A stretch of DNA of 50,545 nt from a virus. Taxonomy: Duplodnaviria > Heunggongvirae > Uroviricota > Caudoviricetes. Below the pieces are notes generated by a model that saw only the letters and a program-made list of their open reading frames with translations, made no database searches and was not told the DNA's origin. The position numbers and the translations under genes are program-made. This document shows, piece by piece, positions 4,719 to 41,339 of the stretch. The stretch lies in the IMG/VR virus record IMGVR_UViG_2617270947_000016; one strand, given 5' to 3'. Each line of letters starts with the position of its first letter. Positions within the stretch are counted from its first letter, which is position 1.

Positions 4719-5318
4719 TCAGAAACGGTATCCGATACCAACAATAAATGCATCCGTTCGCCAGTCGCCACTACCGGAACCTTCATAAGCAAGGTCAATG
4801 GTCACGGATTCGGTCGGGTTAAACTGCACGCCAGCCCCCCACGCCAGAGACGTGTTGCTGTGGCGACCGTCATCACTTCCGGTCAGCACATCGTGCGTTT
4901 TCCCCTTGTTGTCAGTTACGCGGAGATAATCCCCGGAGAAAGTCGACACACGGCTGTAAGCCATACCCGCCATCACATACGCGCTGAACCATTCATTCAC
5001 GCGTACAGACGGCCCCGCCATCACGCTGAACCAGCGGTTACGCACGGAATCTTCATGCCAGCGGGTATCGCTGTAGTGCGTTTTTTGCTCATCCTCAGCA
5101 TTGGCATAACTGAAGGACGTAATCAGCCCCAGCGCGTCCGTAAACTCATAACGGTATTTCACGTTAATCCCGTTCAGATTATCGCTGCCGGGAGCGTTCG
5201 TACGGGCATGAAGATACCCCGCGCTCAGTGTGGACTGATGTTCAGACGCCCATGCAGGCGCACCGGATACGGACAGACAGATGGCTGCGGACAAAATGGC
5301 TGCACAAACTTTACGCAT
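4719..5318 (-). CDS. lom: Lom outer membrane protein (Ail/Lom family)
   Basis: 199 aa; near-identical to lambda Lom throughout (MRKVCAAILSAAICLSVSGAPAWASEHQSTLSAGYLHA...). Confidence 0.92.
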   Translation of the reverse strand: MRKVCAAILSAAICLSVSGAPAWASEHQSTLSAGYLHARTNAPGSDNLNGINVKYRYEFTDALGLITSFSYANAEDEQKTHYSDTRWHEDSVRNRWFSVMAGPSVRVNEWFSAYVMAGMAYSRVSTFSGDYLRVTDNKGKTHDVLTGSDDGRHSNTSLAWGAGVQFNPTESVTIDLAYEGSGSGDWRTDAFIVGIGYRF

Positions 5319-5385: not shown

Positions 5386-8300
5386 TCAGCTGATACTGAT
5401 GCCTGCGGTGGCTTTCTTCATCACCACAACCAGCAAATCGCTGATACTTGCTGTGGGATACCAGTTATTCACCAGCCATGCTGATACCGAAAACTCCAGC
5501 GTCATGTGACCGTGACCGGCAGGCATATCAATAACGCCACTGTAAATCAGCGTATTATCCAGCGCGGTACGGTTATAAATTTCAGCACCGTTTTTCCGCA
5601 CTATCAGACGGCATGAGGAGTAAATATCAGTATGCTCTCTCTCATGCTTAGCGCCACTGAATGCCACCGCCGGAATAACAATTTGCCGGTCAAACGGCTG
5701 ATCGTCATAAACCCTGACGGTAATGGTCCCTGATGGCCACCGCTCCGGTGCACGGGAGTCACGGGGGAAAGCTTTGCCCACTGTTTTAACGAGATCGCCT
5801 TCAATCTGGTTGGCGGACAGTTTTCCCAGAACCCGACAGTTCTCGTTAATCGTGACGTTGTTGAGCGTCCCGGAGTTCGCATTCACGTTACCGCTGATAT
5901 CGGCATTTTTCGCCGTCAGCCGCCCGTCCGGTGTCAGGGAAAATGCCGGAGGATTACCGCCGCTGGTAATGGTGGGAGCCGTCAGGCGTTTCAGGAACAC
6001 GTCGTTCATGAATATCTGATCGCCCTGACCAACAAACATCGGCTTTGTGTTGCCATTCGCAGGATTAATCATCGCAATCCTGTCTGCCGCCAGCAGCACC
6101 TGACTCTGCATGCCGTCAGGGGTGTTTTCAATACCGGCACCAATACCCGCGATATAAAGGCGTCCGTCCTGCATCTGCTGCAGCTTCACAGCCCACATGC
6201 TGTTCAGGTTATTATTTGTATCAACCTGAACCTTCTGTATCTGCTGGATTGCCGCACTCTGGTCTTTCAGTTTCTTATTGACAGTCTGCGTGATTTCATT
6301 GCTGACATCCGTAATGGACGTCCTGATTTCAGCCAGGTCAGGCGCAAGCTGACCGTTATCAATCTGCGTCCACAGCTCCTGAGCCAGATGTGTTTTCCCT
6401 ATCTCTCCTTTGAAAAAATCCAGGTAACCTTCCGCATCATCGCTCGCCCGACCGACAGCCTCCACGAATGCCGATTTGCCAACAGTATTCACACTGCGGA
6501 TATAAAAATAATAATCATGGCCCGGTTTGATATTGATACTGGCAGCTATCCAGTACAGCGCCGAGCCAAGATAGCGGGCTGCGGTTTCAACCTGCCTGAT
6601 ATCCGCAATCCGCTTTTCCGAGAACCAGAACTCAAACTGTACCGTCGGGTCATAAACGGCAAGATGCGGCGTGGCGGTTATCTGAAAATAGCCCGGCGTC
6701 AGCTCAATAGTGACCGGTGCCGCAGGCGCGTTAATCCTGAAGGTGGTGGTCGCAGGTTCGCCCTGCTGGCCATAACTGTTAATCGCCCTGACCGTCAGGG
6801 TGTATTCCCCCAGCGGCAGGCCGCTGAAACGGTGCTCCGTGTCTGCGGTGATGGCGGTGGTCACCAGTCTGGCATCCGTTCCCTTACCACTGGTCAGGCG
6901 CAGACTGAAGCGCACACCCTTCACCACCCGCGGCGTGTCCCATTTCGCCTGCGCCAGATACTGGCCGTCAGCTGCGCTCACCTCCACCGTCAGGTGCTGC
7001 ACTGCCGGTGGGATGACGCTGTTCAGGGAGCCTGACTGCGGCTCAAAGCGGGCACCGTTATCCACGATGGCTTCTTTTTCCGGTACGTGCTGCACCGCCG
7101 TGATGGCAAAGGTGCCGTCCGTGTTTTCCCGGACGGAGACACAGCGGAACAGGCAACGGCGCAGTGACGGCAGGGAGAGTCCCCACACCCCGTATGTCTC
7201 CACACCATCAGGCAGGGTACTGACCTGTATCCGGTCCGGCGCGGGGTGTGCGGTGATGTCCACACTCACCGGCTTACCGCTGCCGTTAATCAGGTTCACC
7301 GCCGATGTACCTGTCTCCGGCAGGGTAACCTCACGGTCCAGCGTCAGGGTGCGGGTGGCAGCATCAATGGACAGGATACGTCCGCCGGTCATAGTCCCGG
7401 CATAGTCGTTATCACAGATTTCAATAATGTCACCCGGTGTGTGACGCAGCCCCTGTGACCCGAGCGTGAAGTCCACCGTCTGCGTTTCCAGCAGTTCGGT
7501 CTTTATCACCCACAGACCTGCACGGTGAGCCTGACCGCGGCTGGTACAGCCAAACGCATCCATCTTCAGCAGATTGCGTCCGTAGCGCAGTATGGCTTCC
7601 GGGTCTTCCACCAGTTCCGTGGAGGTCTGCCAGCCGTTCTGCGGGTCGGTGTAATTCACCTCCACCGCCGTGTGCCGGTCCTTCAGGGCACTGAAGCTGT
7701 AGCGGAATCCCACGCCGTTATCATCCACCACCACATCGCTGTTGGTGTACGGCCACACCACATCCGACGGGCGGTCCTGAACGAACGTCAGCGTCTGACC
7801 GTTCCATACCGGCATACAGCGCATCGCAGAGCAGAAATCACTGAGAACGTCCCACGCCTTACGCTGTTGTGCCAGGTACGCATTAAAGGTCATCCGCGGC
7901 TCGGTCCCCCCGAAACCATCCGGGACCGTCTGGTCGCAGTACTGCCCGATGGCATACAGCGCCCACTTGTCCACATCCGCCGCCCCCAGACGTTTTCCCA
8001 TGCCGTAGCGCGGGTGAGTCAGCATGTCCCACAGGCACCAGGCCGGGTTGTTGCTGTATGCCGGTTTCAGACTGCCGTCCCAGATACCACTGTACGTGCG
8101 TTTTTCCGGGTCATAGTTTGACGGCACCTGGATGATGCGACCGCGGATATGGTAGTTCACCGTCATCTGCTGGCCGCCGAACTGCTCCGCATCCACCTGC
8201 AGCCCCACAATGGCCGTGTTCGGGTAGCACTGTTTCACATCGATGATTTCGGTGTATGACGACCACAGCGTCTTATTCTGCAGTTGGTCCGTGGTGCTGT

Positions 8301-8859
8301 CCGCCGTCTCCCTGACCATCCGGATGTTAAAGGGCCGGGGAGGCAGATTATCCAGAATCACCGAGGCCAGGAACTGTGAGGTGGTCTTGCCGTTAATGGT
8401 GACGTCCTTTTCCGTCACCCAGTTACCGTTACGCTGTAACTGAATCAGCAGACGGACGGATGCCGGGTTACGGTCACCCTTTGAGGTGGTCTCCACCAGT
8501 GACTGCACCCCGAAGGTAACCCGCAGGCGGTCAATGTTCGCGGACGTAATGGTGCGCGTCACCGGTTTTGCCTTCGTCACTTCCACGCCCAGTCCGGTTT
8601 CAGCTCCGGAGGACTCAAAGCCTTCCGGTGGTGTCTGCTCCTGCTCCCCGGCACGCCAGACCGCGGTCACACCGTGTATCACGGGATTACCGTCCGTGTC
8701 CGTCAGCGGGGTTTTGTTCACCAGGATACTCTGCAGTCCCTTCACCGGGCCTTCTATCGGTCCCTCACCAATCGCATCAATCACGCTCATCATCTGCGTG
8801 GATTTGAGATTATCCTTCGCCTCACGAGGCGTGTGTGCCTTACCGCCACCTTTTCCCAT
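5386..8859 (-). CDS. J: Tail tip / host specificity protein J
   Basis: 1157 aa; N-terminus [22 protein letters not shown] and many internal blocks match lambda J. Confidence 0.95.
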
Positions 8860-8965
8860 ACAGCCTTCCCCTGAATAAATTAACCGCCACTTGCCATTCC
8901 GTACAGAAGTCGGATATCCTTCGCCCGAAAAGCATGAAACACATTTCTGCCATGCTAAAGAGAAA

Positions 8966-8989
8966 CCCCGGTATCAGCAGATACCGGGG
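8966..8989. terminator. Strong hairpin (10 bp stem, 4 nt loop) with U-rich flanks on both strands; possible bidirectional terminator
   Basis: CCCCGGTATC-AGCA-GATACCGGGG; T-rich sequence downstream on both strands. Confidence 0.45.
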
Positions 8990-9064
8990 TTTTCTTTCAT
9001 GCCCACCGATAATCCTGTTGGTTAAAACCGGTAATGGCATAAAAATTCTGAATATCTTCACATT

Positions 9065-9092
9065 TTCACAAACTGACTGTGGCGCGTATAAT
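9065..9092 (+). promoter_or_regulatory. Near-consensus sigma70 promoter (TTCACA-16 bp-TATAAT) antisense to tail operon
   Basis: -35 at 9065-9070 and perfect -10 TATAAT at 9087-9092 in the expanded I-J spacer. Confidence 0.45.
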
Positions 9093-9098
9093 TTCTCT

Positions 9099-9196
9099 GC
9101 GTTAATTTTTTTGTCGTGATATAAGAATAATTCCTTACACTTAATCTTCGTAACTCTCCCGCAGTTCCTGTCCGCGATCACTGCGGGATTTTTTTA
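9099..9196 (+). ncRNA. Candidate ~98 nt small RNA (promoter to intrinsic terminator), unassigned
   Basis: Predicted start just downstream of TATAAT; ends at hairpin TCCCGCAG...CTGCGGGA (9157-9188) followed by TTTTTTT; no ORF with RBS. Confidence 0.35.
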
Positions 9197-9202
9197 TTCT
9201 TT

Positions 9203-9883
9203 TTACCCCTGCCGCCCGATAACCACGACCTTTCCGCCCCCGCCTTCATCACGGGTGCTGATGTCCTGGGATATACGGCGGGAGCCAACCAGCATTTCCC
9301 CGTAAGGCACCGGCATCGGGTTCCCCTGGGCAATCATGTTATCCAGCGAGGAAAAGTACGTGTTCTGTCTGCCGTTATCCGTTGCGCGGTAATCCGGTGT
9401 TTTTGCCTTCGGGGCCAGCATCTGGGCCACACCGCCCAGAATCATGCTGGCTCCAAGTGAAAACAGCATCGTGGTGGCAGAAAAACCACCGGCACTCAGG
9501 GCTGTACCCCATAACGCCATCGAGCCTCCGGCCGTGAAGAAAGAGCCCACGATGGCTGCCGCCCCCAGCACAATCTGCAGTCCACCCTTTCCGGCCCCGG
9601 CCAGTCGCGGCACAATGTGGATGACCGTTCCCTCACCCAGCTGTTCGTGAAGACGGGCATACACCGCCTCCGGTGCCGTGTCATCACCGGCAATACGTAT
9701 CTGGTACCAGCCTTCGTTCATCTGACGGCGAAAGCCCGGCATCTGCATCGACAGGGCGCGAATGGCTTCCGCTGCCGTGTTCACATACAGGCTGAGGCGG
9801 CGGCCAAATCGTTGCAAATCCCCGTGAAGGCAGATGCGTGCCAGTGGCGGTGACGCCAGACAGAATGCGTTCGTCGTTGCCAT
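9203..9883 (-). CDS. I: Tail tip assembly protein I
   Basis: 226 aa; ARICLHGDLQRFGRR..., GQFSSLDNM-type blocks match lambda I; overlaps K by ~100 bp as in lambda. Confidence 0.9.
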   Translation of the reverse strand: MATTNAFCLASPPLARICLHGDLQRFGRRLSLYVNTAAEAIRALSMQMPGFRRQMNEGWYQIRIAGDDTAPEAVYARLHEQLGEGTVIHIVPRLAGAGKGGLQIVLGAAAIVGSFFTAGGSMALWGTALSAGGFSATTMLFSLGASMILGGVAQMLAPKAKTPDYRATDNGRQNTYFSSLDNMIAQGNPMPVPYGEMLVGSRRISQDISTRDEGGGGKVVVIGRQG

Positions 9884-15002: not shown

Positions 15003-15749
15003 TTAGCCACCCGGCACATTATTAACGGTAATTTCAGCCACCGCAGCAAACTGACCATTACCGGAAATCACAGGGATGCTGACTTTTCCATCCTTAACCC
15101 CCGTCACAGTAATCGTCATATCTTTCACGCTAATGGTGGCTTTTGATGGATCGGCGGAAATCGCCCTGAATGTCTTATCCGTTGCATTTTCCGGTTCCAC
15201 AGTAACGGTCAGGGTGGTTGTTTTCCCTTTTTCAACCGTACCTGTCGGCGTTACCTTAATCGCAGTGACCGGCGTAATTTTGCTGCGTTCTTCCGCTACA
15301 GAAGGTTTACCCACGTTAGTGACTTTCACCGTGCGGGTGATCACTTCTTTCGCCGTCACGGCCTTACCGATACTGCTGCCCCAGCCACGAAACACATCCA
15401 CCGTGCCATTCGGAAAACGGATTTTATAGGCCCGGACATCGCCGCTTTCAAACCAGCCTATAAGCCCTTTCTGACCTTCCTCTCCCGGTTTCCAGGCCAG
15501 CGTAAAACTGGTATCACCTGCAGATTTCTGCCCCTGCCCGGTCGCGGTCCAGTCTGCGTCTTCATCATCCAGGTAGTTATCATCGTAGGATTCTGCCGTC
15601 ATCTCGCCCGGCGTCAGATCCTTCACCTTAGCCAGTCGCTGCCAGTCAGCGTCTGACAACGGGTTTGCATAAGCATCACCCTTGCCGTTGTAAACCCACA
15701 GAGTGGTACCGGCACCTTTTACCGGCTCCAGGGGATTTGGTGTTGCCAT
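15003..15749 (-). CDS. V: Major tail protein V
   Basis: 248 aa; N-terminal and C-terminal Ig-like regions match lambda V. Confidence 0.92.
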
Positions 15750-30486: not shown

Positions 30487-30680
30487 GAATCCTCCCGGCC
30501 GGGATAATATTGTGAGTAAAATGAGGAGCGGGCTGAAGTCCGGAAGTTACAGGACAATGGCAGAAGAGAGACAATAGCCCGCAATACGAAAAAGGCCGCG
30601 CTATTGCGCAGAGTGATTACTGTCGGATATTATTCGCCAGCTGAAATATTACTTCACGTTTTGTTGTTTATTCCTTGCCG

Positions 30681-30708
30681 CCCGCGTCTCCCTGCGCGGG
30701 ATTTTTTT
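30681..30708 (+). terminator. Hairpin plus T7 tract (plus strand) in the tRNA-nanS spacer
   Basis: CCCGCG-N8-CGCGGG followed by ATTTTTTT. Confidence 0.4.
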
Positions 30709-30720
30709 GTCCATAAGAAA

Positions 30721-30738
30721 GCCCCTCCGGAGAGGGGC
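30721..30738. other. Perfect 7 bp hairpin GCCCCTC-CGGA-GAGGGGC
   Basis: Direct sequence inspection; U-rich tract follows on minus strand. Confidence 0.4.
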
Positions 30739-30935
30739 TGGAGAGTGGCGCTATGTGCCATTGCATGGTGCCGGGTGCCTCCCGGTGAATTCAGTACCAG
30801 CACCTGAATCCGCGATTATCCCATATACCTACTCGCTGATTGCCCCTCCGCACAGGGGGATTCACCATGCCAGTTTCTTTTAACAAACTCCCCGCAAAAC
30901 AGACAACTGTCAACCGTCTGAATTGTGAGACATTT

Positions 30936-30975: not shown

Positions 30976-31052
30976 TGGCGCGTTGTACTGGATTCGAACC
31001 AGTGACCGATTGCTTAGAAGGCAATTGCTCTGTCCGGCTGAGCTAACAACGC
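30976..31052 (-). tRNA. tRNA-Arg (anticodon UCU)
   Basis: 77 nt cloverleaf: acceptor GCGTTGT/ACAACGC, anticodon loop CTTCTAA, T-loop TTCGAAT, 3' CCA. Confidence 0.85.
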
Positions 31053-31065
31053 AGGGTACAGATAA

Positions 31066-31142
31066 TGGACCGCCATCGAGGACTCGAACCCCGCGCAACC
31101 AGCTTCGAAGGCTGGCGCTCTATCCTGATGAGCTAATGGCGG
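31066..31142 (-). tRNA. tRNA-Arg (anticodon UCG)
   Basis: 77 nt: acceptor CCGCCAT/ATGGCGG, anticodon stem CCAGC/GCTGG with loop CTTCGAA, T-loop TTCGAGT, 3' CCA. Confidence 0.75.
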
Positions 31143-31149
31143 TATGTGA

Positions 31150-31225
31150 TGGTGGCCCTTGCTGGATTTGAACCAGCGACCTGGCGATTATGAGTCGCTC
31201 GCTCTCACCACTGAGCTAAAGGGCC
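31150..31225 (-). tRNA. tRNA with CAU anticodon, ileX-like (tRNA-Ile2 / Met)
   Basis: 76 nt: GGCCCTTTAGCTCAGTGGT...CTCATAA...GGTTCAAATCC...CCA; resembles E. coli ileX. Confidence 0.8.
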
Positions 31226-40479: not shown

Positions 40480-41339
40480 GGGCGAACCTCCTTGTCAGAA
40501 CCATTCAGCCTGGAATCAACAAGTGCAGCGCCAAAAACAGCATCACCAACACGGTCGTACAGTTTGCTAGCCAGCGGAGATTCAACGGCCTTAAGCATTG
40601 GATAAAGCTGGCTTGTCCAGATTTGATGGATTTCACGCAAATGCAGGTATACGCCTCTGGCGTTTCGTGCGACAGCTGACATATCAGACGCATCGGCACC
40701 TGATAAACTCTTCTCCATCAGGTTAAAGGCGTTGATGTATGCCTCTTTGAACCGGGCAGCACGTTTACCAGTGAAGCCCATGGCAAGAAACGCAAAACCG
40801 TCGCGGGTGATTTGGTAACAAGGGAGCTTGCGTGTACCACCGTTCGGTTGATTTACCGAAATCGATGTCTCCGCAAAATTGCGGGCACAAAACTCAGGGG
40901 AACAATCCAGAGTGCGGATCTTTTTCAGCACATCGTCATGACGCTTGGAGAAGAAGTTGGCAACAGCCAAAGAAGTGGTAACGGCCTGGCCGTTGTCAAT
41001 GGTGATTTCAGGTTGAGTGAGGGCTGGGATCGTAGCCATGATGGCAGCCTCCGTTGACAGTGAAAAACTTCCACCACCGGAAACGCCAATTTCACTGGTG
41101 GTGAACTGGACGGGGTTGGCGTAACCGGCGTCAACGGAGACCGGCGCACCTTTCGGTGCCCCCGCCCAGCCCACCATAATCTGGATGTGAGCAAATGCGG
41201 ACGATAAAAAAGACGCTGACGCGTCATACATCGCCGTTGACAATTTCAGGACGCCAATCCCGGCACCCGCTTTATAAGGTGCGGAGACAGTGTAACGTCC
41301 CGAAATTGCAGAATCAATATTTGGTCTTGAAATGATCAT
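40476..41339 (-). CDS. Protein with C-terminal Rha-family (phage regulatory protein) domain
   Basis: 287 aa; ...KRHDDVLKKIRTL...ITRDGFAFLAMGFTGKRAARFKEAYINAFNLME pattern. Confidence 0.55.
   Translation of the reverse strand: MIISRPNIDSAISGRYTVSAPYKAGAGIGVLKLSTAMYDASASFLSSAFAHIQIMVGWAGAPKGAPVSVDAGYANPVQFTTSEIGVSGGGSFSLSTEAAIMATIPALTQPEITIDNGQAVTTSLAVANFFSKRHDDVLKKIRTLDCSPEFCARNFAETSISVNQPNGGTRKLPCYQITRDGFAFLAMGFTGKRAARFKEAYINAFNLMEKSLSGADASDMSAVARNARGVYLHLREIHQIWTSQLYPMLKAVESPLASKLYDRVGDAVFGAALVDSRLNGSDKEVRP

Follow-up and report, generated by a model that had tools for sequence, protein, structure and literature searches.

The window analysed here, a stretch of 50,545 nucleotides, carries two neighboring tail genes on its minus strand. 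Gene J (5386-8859, ATG at 8857-8859) was recognized by its GpJ domains and gene I (9203-9883, TAA stop codon at 9203-9205) by the domain Lambda_tail_I, both from Pfam and the list of open reading frames (ORFs). The I-J intergenic spacer is therefore located at 8860-9202 and comprises 343 bp, as delimited with the ORF list, Pfam, the lambda annotation, and the RefSeq annotation of identical DNA in strain ATCC 25922. The corresponding gap in phage lambda measures 60 bp (end of I at 15444, start of J at 15505), which bears out the value of about 60 bp that the initial annotation of the window had set against the 343 bp found here.

The part of the spacer next to I harbors a transcription unit on the plus strand, i.e., antisense to the tail genes. 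Its promoter block (9039-9098) consists of an A/T-rich upstream stretch, a tandem TTCACA, and TATAAT. With TTCACA at 9065-9070, a distance of 16 bp, and TATAAT at 9087-9092, the promoter agrees with 11 of the 12 consensus positions in the promoter scan, and the near-consensus promoter proposed earlier for 9065-9092 was thus recovered. It is the best of three promoter-like sites in 2 kb, compared with 1.0 +/- 0.9 sites in shuffled sequences. The predicted primary transcript (9099-9195, plus strand) would start near G9099, 7 nt past the -10 element, and have a length of about 97 nt, close to the approximately 98 nt of the initial annotation. It ends in an intrinsic terminator (9157-9195), identified by folding and by a terminator scan, in which a 9-bp stem (UCCCGCAGU at 9157-9165 paired with ACUGCGGGA at 9180-9188) is followed by seven T residues at 9189-9195, 7 nt short of the I stop codon. 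The hairpin and the T run had both been noticed before, but the T run ends at 9195 rather than 9196; all other features were likewise found in place or at most one base away. The unit accordingly combines a sigma-70-type promoter with a Rho-independent terminator bearing U7, at least six U residues being the criterion for the family described below.

A protein-coding reading of the spacer was rejected. Direct reading of 9099-9195 revealed no ATG, and the sole GTG opens a frame of two codons, in line with the earlier view that the spacer is devoid of a plausible ORF. A minus-strand ORF of 66 amino acids annotated in phage ASU11 is without a counterpart in the short-type spacers, e.g., those of the E. 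coli strains E2348/69 and Sakai. With respect to the promoter, the two TTCACA direct repeats (9057-9062 and 9065-9070, 8 bp apart), the second of which is the -35 element, overlap the -35 region and are kept in the alleles of the window, E2348/69, and JLK-2012; they could represent the binding site of a regulator.

The hairpin next to J

A second structure, a bidirectional terminator-like hairpin (8963-8998, both strands), lies between the promoter of the small RNA (sRNA) and J. Its arms (8966-8975 and 8980-8989) form 10 perfect pairs around the loop AGCA, or 13 pairs if the AAA/TTT extension is included, and are flanked by T-rich runs on the plus strand (TTTTCTTTC) and on the minus strand (TTTCTCTTT). 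The 72-nt stretch that contains it folds with -31.9 kcal/mol (z = -6.9); a simple terminator scan did not list the hairpin at 8966-8989. The 10-bp perfect hairpin with U-tracts on both strands was therefore correctly described in the initial annotation, but it lies outside the sRNA unit.

Comparable hairpins are found at the same junction in other phages. The 60-bp lambda spacer (15445-15504) contains AAACCGCC-TGCG-GGCGGTTT and next to it, on the tail-sense strand, TGTCATTT. Short-type spacers (E2348/69 and Sakai) carry the unrelated hairpin ACAGGCACC..GGTGCCTGT, behind which the tail-sense strand continues with TGTTTT, and one variant of this hairpin exhibits a compensatory change from C:G to T:A. 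The occurrence of three unrelated hairpins in lambda, the short-type spacers, and the window indicates that a hairpin upstream of J is a general property of this junction. The hairpin of the window is the positional equivalent of the lambda I-J hairpin and not a part of the sRNA, whose unit is placed between the hairpin and I. To our knowledge, this conserved intercistronic hairpin upstream of J has no name. Its probable role is to stop, or insulate against, transcription on both strands that lacks modification by the phage Q antiterminator; in the window, it could also protect the sRNA promoter against read-through on the plus strand.

The left half of the spacer might alternatively encode a second plus-strand small RNA of its own (approximately 8927-8997) that terminates at the 8966-8989 hairpin and its U-rich tail. 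The sequence TTGCCA-18-TATCCT at 8891-8920, which agrees with 9 of 12 promoter positions, points in this direction, as does the predicted fold of the 72-nt stretch into a 5' hairpin and a strong terminator with the energy and z-score given above. However, this promoter-like site is at chance level, given three sites in all against 1.0 +/- 0.9 in shuffled sequences, the two best of which belong to the PasB promoter. The lambda and short-type spacers have only a hairpin at the position of the left half, and one long-type variant has lost the hairpin by deletion. Since the segment is nearly invariant, it offers no evolutionary test of a second RNA, for which we see only a slim chance.

Relationship to PasB of EPEC and EcOnc22-24 of EHEC

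The counterpart of the unit in enteropathogenic E. coli (EPEC) is PasB (E2348CN_0006), an 83-nt sRNA from prophage PP6 of strain O127:H6 E2348/69, which is encoded on the minus strand of NC_011601.1 at 1466343..1466261 (Pearl Mizrahi et al. 2021, PMC8550237, Table S6). PasB has been verified by Northern blotting and is Hfq dependent in its stability (Fig. 3A and Table S6 of PMC8550237). It showed 37 interactions in RIL-seq, corresponding to rank 15 by interaction number (Table S5 of PMC8550237), and its level is condition dependent, being higher in the "non-activating" growth condition (PMC8550237). According to the RefSeq record, the PasB coordinates fall in the 240-bp gap between I and gpJ of E2348/69, antisense to both genes.

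A blastn comparison of positions 9039-9202 with the E2348/69 spacer yielded 80.7% identity over 166 nt (E = 2e-37), and that of the RNA alone with PasB yielded 74% (E = 1e-10). The stretch aligning with the 83-nt PasB of Table S6 in PMC8550237 (9112-9195, plus strand) is identical at 65 of the 83 PasB positions, and the target of the published Northern probe matches 9168-9190 at 20 of 23 positions. The longest exact word in common comprises 25 nt, i.e., the 3' half of the terminator together with U7. The promoter block is identical to that of E2348/69 at 56 of 60 positions and to that of phage ASU11 at 57 of 60. Both units share the locus, the antisense orientation, a terminator abutting the I stop codon, the core, and the A-rich tract described below, whereas the terminator loop is 5 nt longer in the window and the J-proximal halves of the spacers (343 bp versus 240 bp) differ. 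The I-J gap of lambda is without a PasB-family unit. The predicted length of 97 nt is at odds with the 83-85 nt of the homologues, which would correspond to 9112-9195; either processing takes place past the U run, or the 5' ends given in the literature are approximate.

A covariance model was built from 20 alleles of the family, with the window-type alleles left out, and it nevertheless produced a full-length match at 9097-9195 with 72.3 bits (E = 1.1e-11). A search of the whole window with Rfam at gathering thresholds returned no family for the spacer, and at E <= 10 the region 8700-9400 gave only noise, with a top score of 27 bits against a threshold of 48.

In enterohemorrhagic E. coli (EHEC), the homologous Hfq-crosslinked sRNAs EcOnc22, EcOnc23, and EcOnc24 originate from the Sakai prophages Sp15, Sp14, and Sp11, respectively; they yielded a Northern band of about 85 nt and are destabilized in a delta-hfq mutant (Tree et al. 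2014, PMC4104026, Table S2). All three sets of coordinates are located within I-J spacers of Sakai. The coordinates of Tree et al. refer to NC_002695.1, and AgvB calibrates the offset to NC_002695.2 as about +136 to +143; the identification of EcOnc22-24 rests on the probe sequence and not on the coordinates. A 23-nt portion of the probe (GGGAGAGAACGATGAAGATTAAC...) is perfectly complementary to the plus-strand unit in the spacers of Sp15, Sp14, and Sp11, e.g., at 2902862-2902896 of NC_002695.2. The Sakai unit can be aligned with that of the window from end to end and has in common with it the UUAAUCUUC core, the CCCGCAG/CUGCGGG-U7 terminator, the locus, and the orientation. It represents a third allele with 71% identity to the window over 163 nt including the promoter, and its -35 region differs.

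Judged by its sequence, the unit at 9065-9195 is an allele of the PasB/EcOnc22-23-24 family of prophage sRNAs. The initial annotation had called it an independent prophage sRNA antisense to the tail operon; with homologues already demonstrated in EPEC and EHEC, this call was right and the element is not new. The family is known from two experimental sightings and one bioinformatic survey, and the discovery value is correspondingly small. EcOnc22-24 and PasB are also alleles of one gene family with respect to each other, an equation that is absent from PMC4104026, PMC8550237, and the 2026 preprint of Zhu, Shabalina and Storz; Table S6 of PMC8550237 leaves the note field of PasB blank, EcOnc is nowhere mentioned in the preprint, and a 2021 review lists the targets of EcOnc22 as unknown. 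Treating the EHEC and EPEC sRNAs as one family joins two literatures.

Other prophage sRNAs were considered as relatives. AgvB and AsxR (Rfam RF02702 and RF02703) are likewise Hfq-binding sRNAs of lambdoid prophages with a conserved 3' terminator, a variable 5' part, and ARN motifs, but they have a length of 51-60 nt and are located 3' of PR' in convergent pairs, whereas the unit of the window resides in the tail operon. Membership was rejected because position and size are wrong and the spacer had no match to RF02702 or RF02703 at E <= 10; sequence similarity between these sRNAs and the spacer was not found either. The spacer also had no match to PasA, PasC, or PasD2 of E2348/69.

Conserved parts and proposed mode of action

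The alleles of the family have in common the promoter, CUGCGUUA as the initial bases of the transcript, a run of U residues, an A-rich tract, UCC(U/A)U, and UUAAUCUU. The window allele retains the promoter, the ARN tract, the UUCCUU..UUAAUCUUC core, and the terminator, the last being the only part with a predicted structure in the consensus fold. The CCCGCAG/CUGCGGG terminator stem is invariant in the 20 alleles, the 3' half having been fixed by the pattern with which the alleles were collected, and U7 is kept as well. Because the stem never varies, covariation was not found and lends the terminator no support. The A-R-N tract (9123-9131, plus strand) comprises three consecutive triplets, AAGAAUAAU. 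The sequence of the A-rich tract varies, but 41 of the 45 distinct alleles possess at least three consecutive ARN triplets at a similar position. The distal face of Hfq might be contacted by the AAGAAUAAU tract, in which case the family, by virtue of its conserved (ARN)3 tract, would belong to the class-II-like sRNAs that use this face. The conserved core (9131-9149, plus strand; UUCCUUACACUUAAUCUUC) emerged from conserved columns across the alleles and is unpaired in the consensus fold. It is the likely pairing (seed) region; its UUCCUU is complementary to the Shine-Dalgarno-like AAGGAA. The seed predicted for PasB is located immediately upstream of the terminator (Zhu, Shabalina and Storz 2026 preprint).

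Taken as a whole, the plus strand at 9065-9195 very probably constitutes a self-contained sRNA gene, an RNA "moron" inserted between I and J of a lambdoid prophage as an allele of the PasB family. Morons (Juhala et al. 2000), e.g., lom, bor, and the prophage sodC, are promoter-gene-terminator units that have been added between direct neighbors in the lambda gene order and are expressed from the prophage. The unit of the window has this organization, but its cargo is a non-coding RNA, unlike that of the other morons. Its most likely function is that of a trans-acting, Hfq-binding sRNA made in lysogens, a reading suggested by the Northern, delta-hfq, and RIL-seq results for two other alleles and by the retention of all recognizable parts in the present one. 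The host sigma-70 RNA polymerase would start near 9099 in the lysogen, independent of the late operon running in the opposite direction, and transcription would halt at the hairpin-U7 terminator 7 nt short of the I stop codon. The resulting RNA of about 97 nt, possibly trimmed to a PasB-like form of about 84 nt, would be bound by Hfq via the terminator hairpin and the U tail, which together form the presumed Hfq-binding module at 9157-9195, and probably also via the AAGAAUAAU tract. The unstructured UUCCUU..UUAAUCUUC core would then pair in trans with mRNAs of the host and the prophage. For the window allele, expression, the 5' end, the Hfq contacts, the seed, and all targets are predictions carried over from its relatives and its sequence. 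Within the window, the best RNAduplex pairing of 9112-9157 with 226 translation start regions reached -24.4 kcal/mol, while the mean minimum of shuffled sRNAs was -26.2 kcal/mol, so that no target in the window rose above the shuffled controls.

The antisense location suggests another mode of action, in which the RNA, being perfectly complementary to the I-J intercistronic part of the late tail mRNA, would act in cis after induction and thereby provoke RNase III cleavage or alter the expression of J. The argument for it is one of geometry, since the transcribed I-J spacer encloses the whole unit on its other strand, and 118 of 124 units retain both position and orientation although in principle the gene could sit anywhere. 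However, neither a coding sequence nor a ribosome-binding site is overlapped, as the start of J is 240 nt beyond the 5' end of the sRNA, and PasB of EPEC has 37 partners in trans. The RNA body varies without apparent restraint, in contrast to I and J with their identity of 96-98%; this tells little either way because any allele complements its own late mRNA. A cis-acting antisense RNA is thus unlikely as the principal explanation. In a variant of this idea, the abundant late transcript would mop up the sRNA in the lytic phase. Both versions are compatible with action in trans, and a cis role or such a sponge may explain the kept position and orientation of what is otherwise best read as a trans-acting sRNA.

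Distribution, allele divergence, and cargo of the I-J junction

The full spacer is present in 1,662 of 5,426 complete E. coli genomes, and in 633 of them, including human extraintestinal isolates, it is at least 99% identical to that of the window. The promoter-to-terminator unit occurs in 1,847 of the 5,426 genomes at 4,746 places, with up to nine per genome. Together with the covariance model match, this distribution speaks against an unconserved indel, the outcome that the initial annotation had named as contradicting its proposal. An allele identical to that of the window is carried by CFT073 and ATCC 25922 (both over 9039-9202), CE10, and other strains. A pattern scan of viral contigs delivered 122 usable units, 52 of which are of the window type as a group; the window allele itself is the commonest with 24. 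A homologue of I is located on the opposite strand at 118 of 124 viral-contig matches, with its stop codon 9-52 nt (nearly always 9-16 nt) from the U run, and in 98 of those 118 the start of J is also within 600 nt. An exact-pattern scan of 185,579 species representatives, strict enough that divergent relatives would escape it, found 38 stretches; two are real, both in E. albertii, and the remainder is spread over unrelated phyla in roughly the number estimated for chance. The restriction of the matches to E. albertii fits the statement of the 2026 preprint that Pas sRNAs occur for the most part within Escherichia and Shigella.

These data also bear on the reading that the unit is not a working gene but a remnant in decay or simple spacer DNA, with promoter- and terminator-like motifs from which a stable RNA is no longer made. 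The spacing of 16 bp between -35 and -10, the lack of covariation in the terminator stem, and the existence of spacers of the sodC type that keep the RNA body without the TTCACA..TATAAT promoter are in its favor. Against it stand the intact promoter with 11 of 12 consensus positions and the intact terminator with U7, the abundance of the allele in the 633 genomes and among the viral-contig units (24 of 122), and the expression of homologues from the same promoter (PMC8550237). Decay is accordingly highly improbable, and a functional sRNA gene is the preferred interpretation.

About one third of the complete E. coli genomes carry the gene, and both a RefSeq feature and an Rfam model are absent there; 59 of 60 sampled records list no RefSeq feature under the match. 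A covariance model would close this systematic gap in annotation. The remaining interest of the element lies in this missing annotation, in the divergent allele, and in the cassette-like pattern of divergence.

The divergence between the window and E2348/69 is local. Identity amounts to 288 of 300 nt at the beginning of J, 56 of 60 in the promoter, and 295 of 300 at the end of I, but only to 44 of 66 in the sRNA body, i.e., 67% compared with 93-98% in the promoter and the adjacent DNA of I and J. The allele that is common in extraintestinal E. coli hence differs in one third of the RNA body, and its function may therefore differ from that of PasB. In the long-type spacers, the left half and the promoter are nearly invariant, and the body is either of the window type or of the PasB/PasB-2 type. 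The left half of the window spacer matches phage ASU11 and the PPompW phages, whereas the RNA body has its counterpart in phage JLK-2012 and in the Stx1a and Stx2c phages, which identifies the spacer as a mosaic. It is conceivable, as a tentative suggestion, that the I-J slot is an exchangeable sRNA cassette with a fixed promoter and terminator and that the target set of the window allele is unlike those of EPEC PasB and EHEC EcOnc22.

The 2026 census of Zhu, Shabalina and Storz used BLAST with a word size of 28 and more than 75% coverage for the 83-nt E2348/69 query, and the preprint states that PasB variants differ by a few nucleotides only. The longest exact word shared by the window allele and PasB has 25 nt, so the window allele was probably not counted. 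A literature search revealed no paper on this allele in CFT073 or other uropathogenic strains. The CFT073 prophage with the identical unit is located at 3015473-3044232 of NZ_CP058222.1, next to potB, and its J protein is longer than that of the window (1157 amino acids), so that a related prophage of a different strain is the probable origin of the window.

Cargo is repeatedly encountered at the I-J junction of lambdoid prophages, in the form of one sRNA, of tandem sRNAs, or of sodC together with an sRNA. Spacers of 851 bp in at least 10 viral contigs contain a gene for Cu/Zn superoxide dismutase, sodC (Pfam Sod_Cu, E = 4e-32). This gene has its own terminator and precedes a window-type sRNA body on the same strand, and TTCACA..TATAAT is absent; in one example contig, sodC is located at 1050-1577 and the sRNA body at 1712-1762, both on the plus strand in the numbering of that contig. 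Other prophages possess two tandem sRNA units in the I-J spacer, e.g., at 419-468 and 645-694 on the reverse strand of one contig and at 1-40 and 401-553 of another, each in its own numbering. In 421-bp spacers, the unit nearer to J is a more divergent paralogue with a CUCCCG..CGGGAG terminator and a U run.

Elsewhere in the prophage, Rfam matches at gathering level were obtained on the minus strand at 30709-30899, 30979-31225, 41094-41181, and 41206-41282; the families found are STnc100 (139 bits), three tRNA genes, C4 antisense RNA (81 bits), and isrK (62 bits). PasD2 showed its known distant similarity to STnc100 at 30831-30870. The PasB-family model had a weak second match on the plus strand at 30620-30708 (23 bits, E = 0.02), and BLAST revealed no resemblance of this stretch to PasA, PasC, or PasD2 of E2348/69. 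It may represent an sRNA, or else just the terminator belonging to the plus-strand gene that precedes it. The stretch ends in CGCGGGAUUUUUUU, directly abutting the 3' end of STnc100 on the opposite strand, and this convergence resembles the arrangement 3' of PR' in Tree et al. (PMC4104026).
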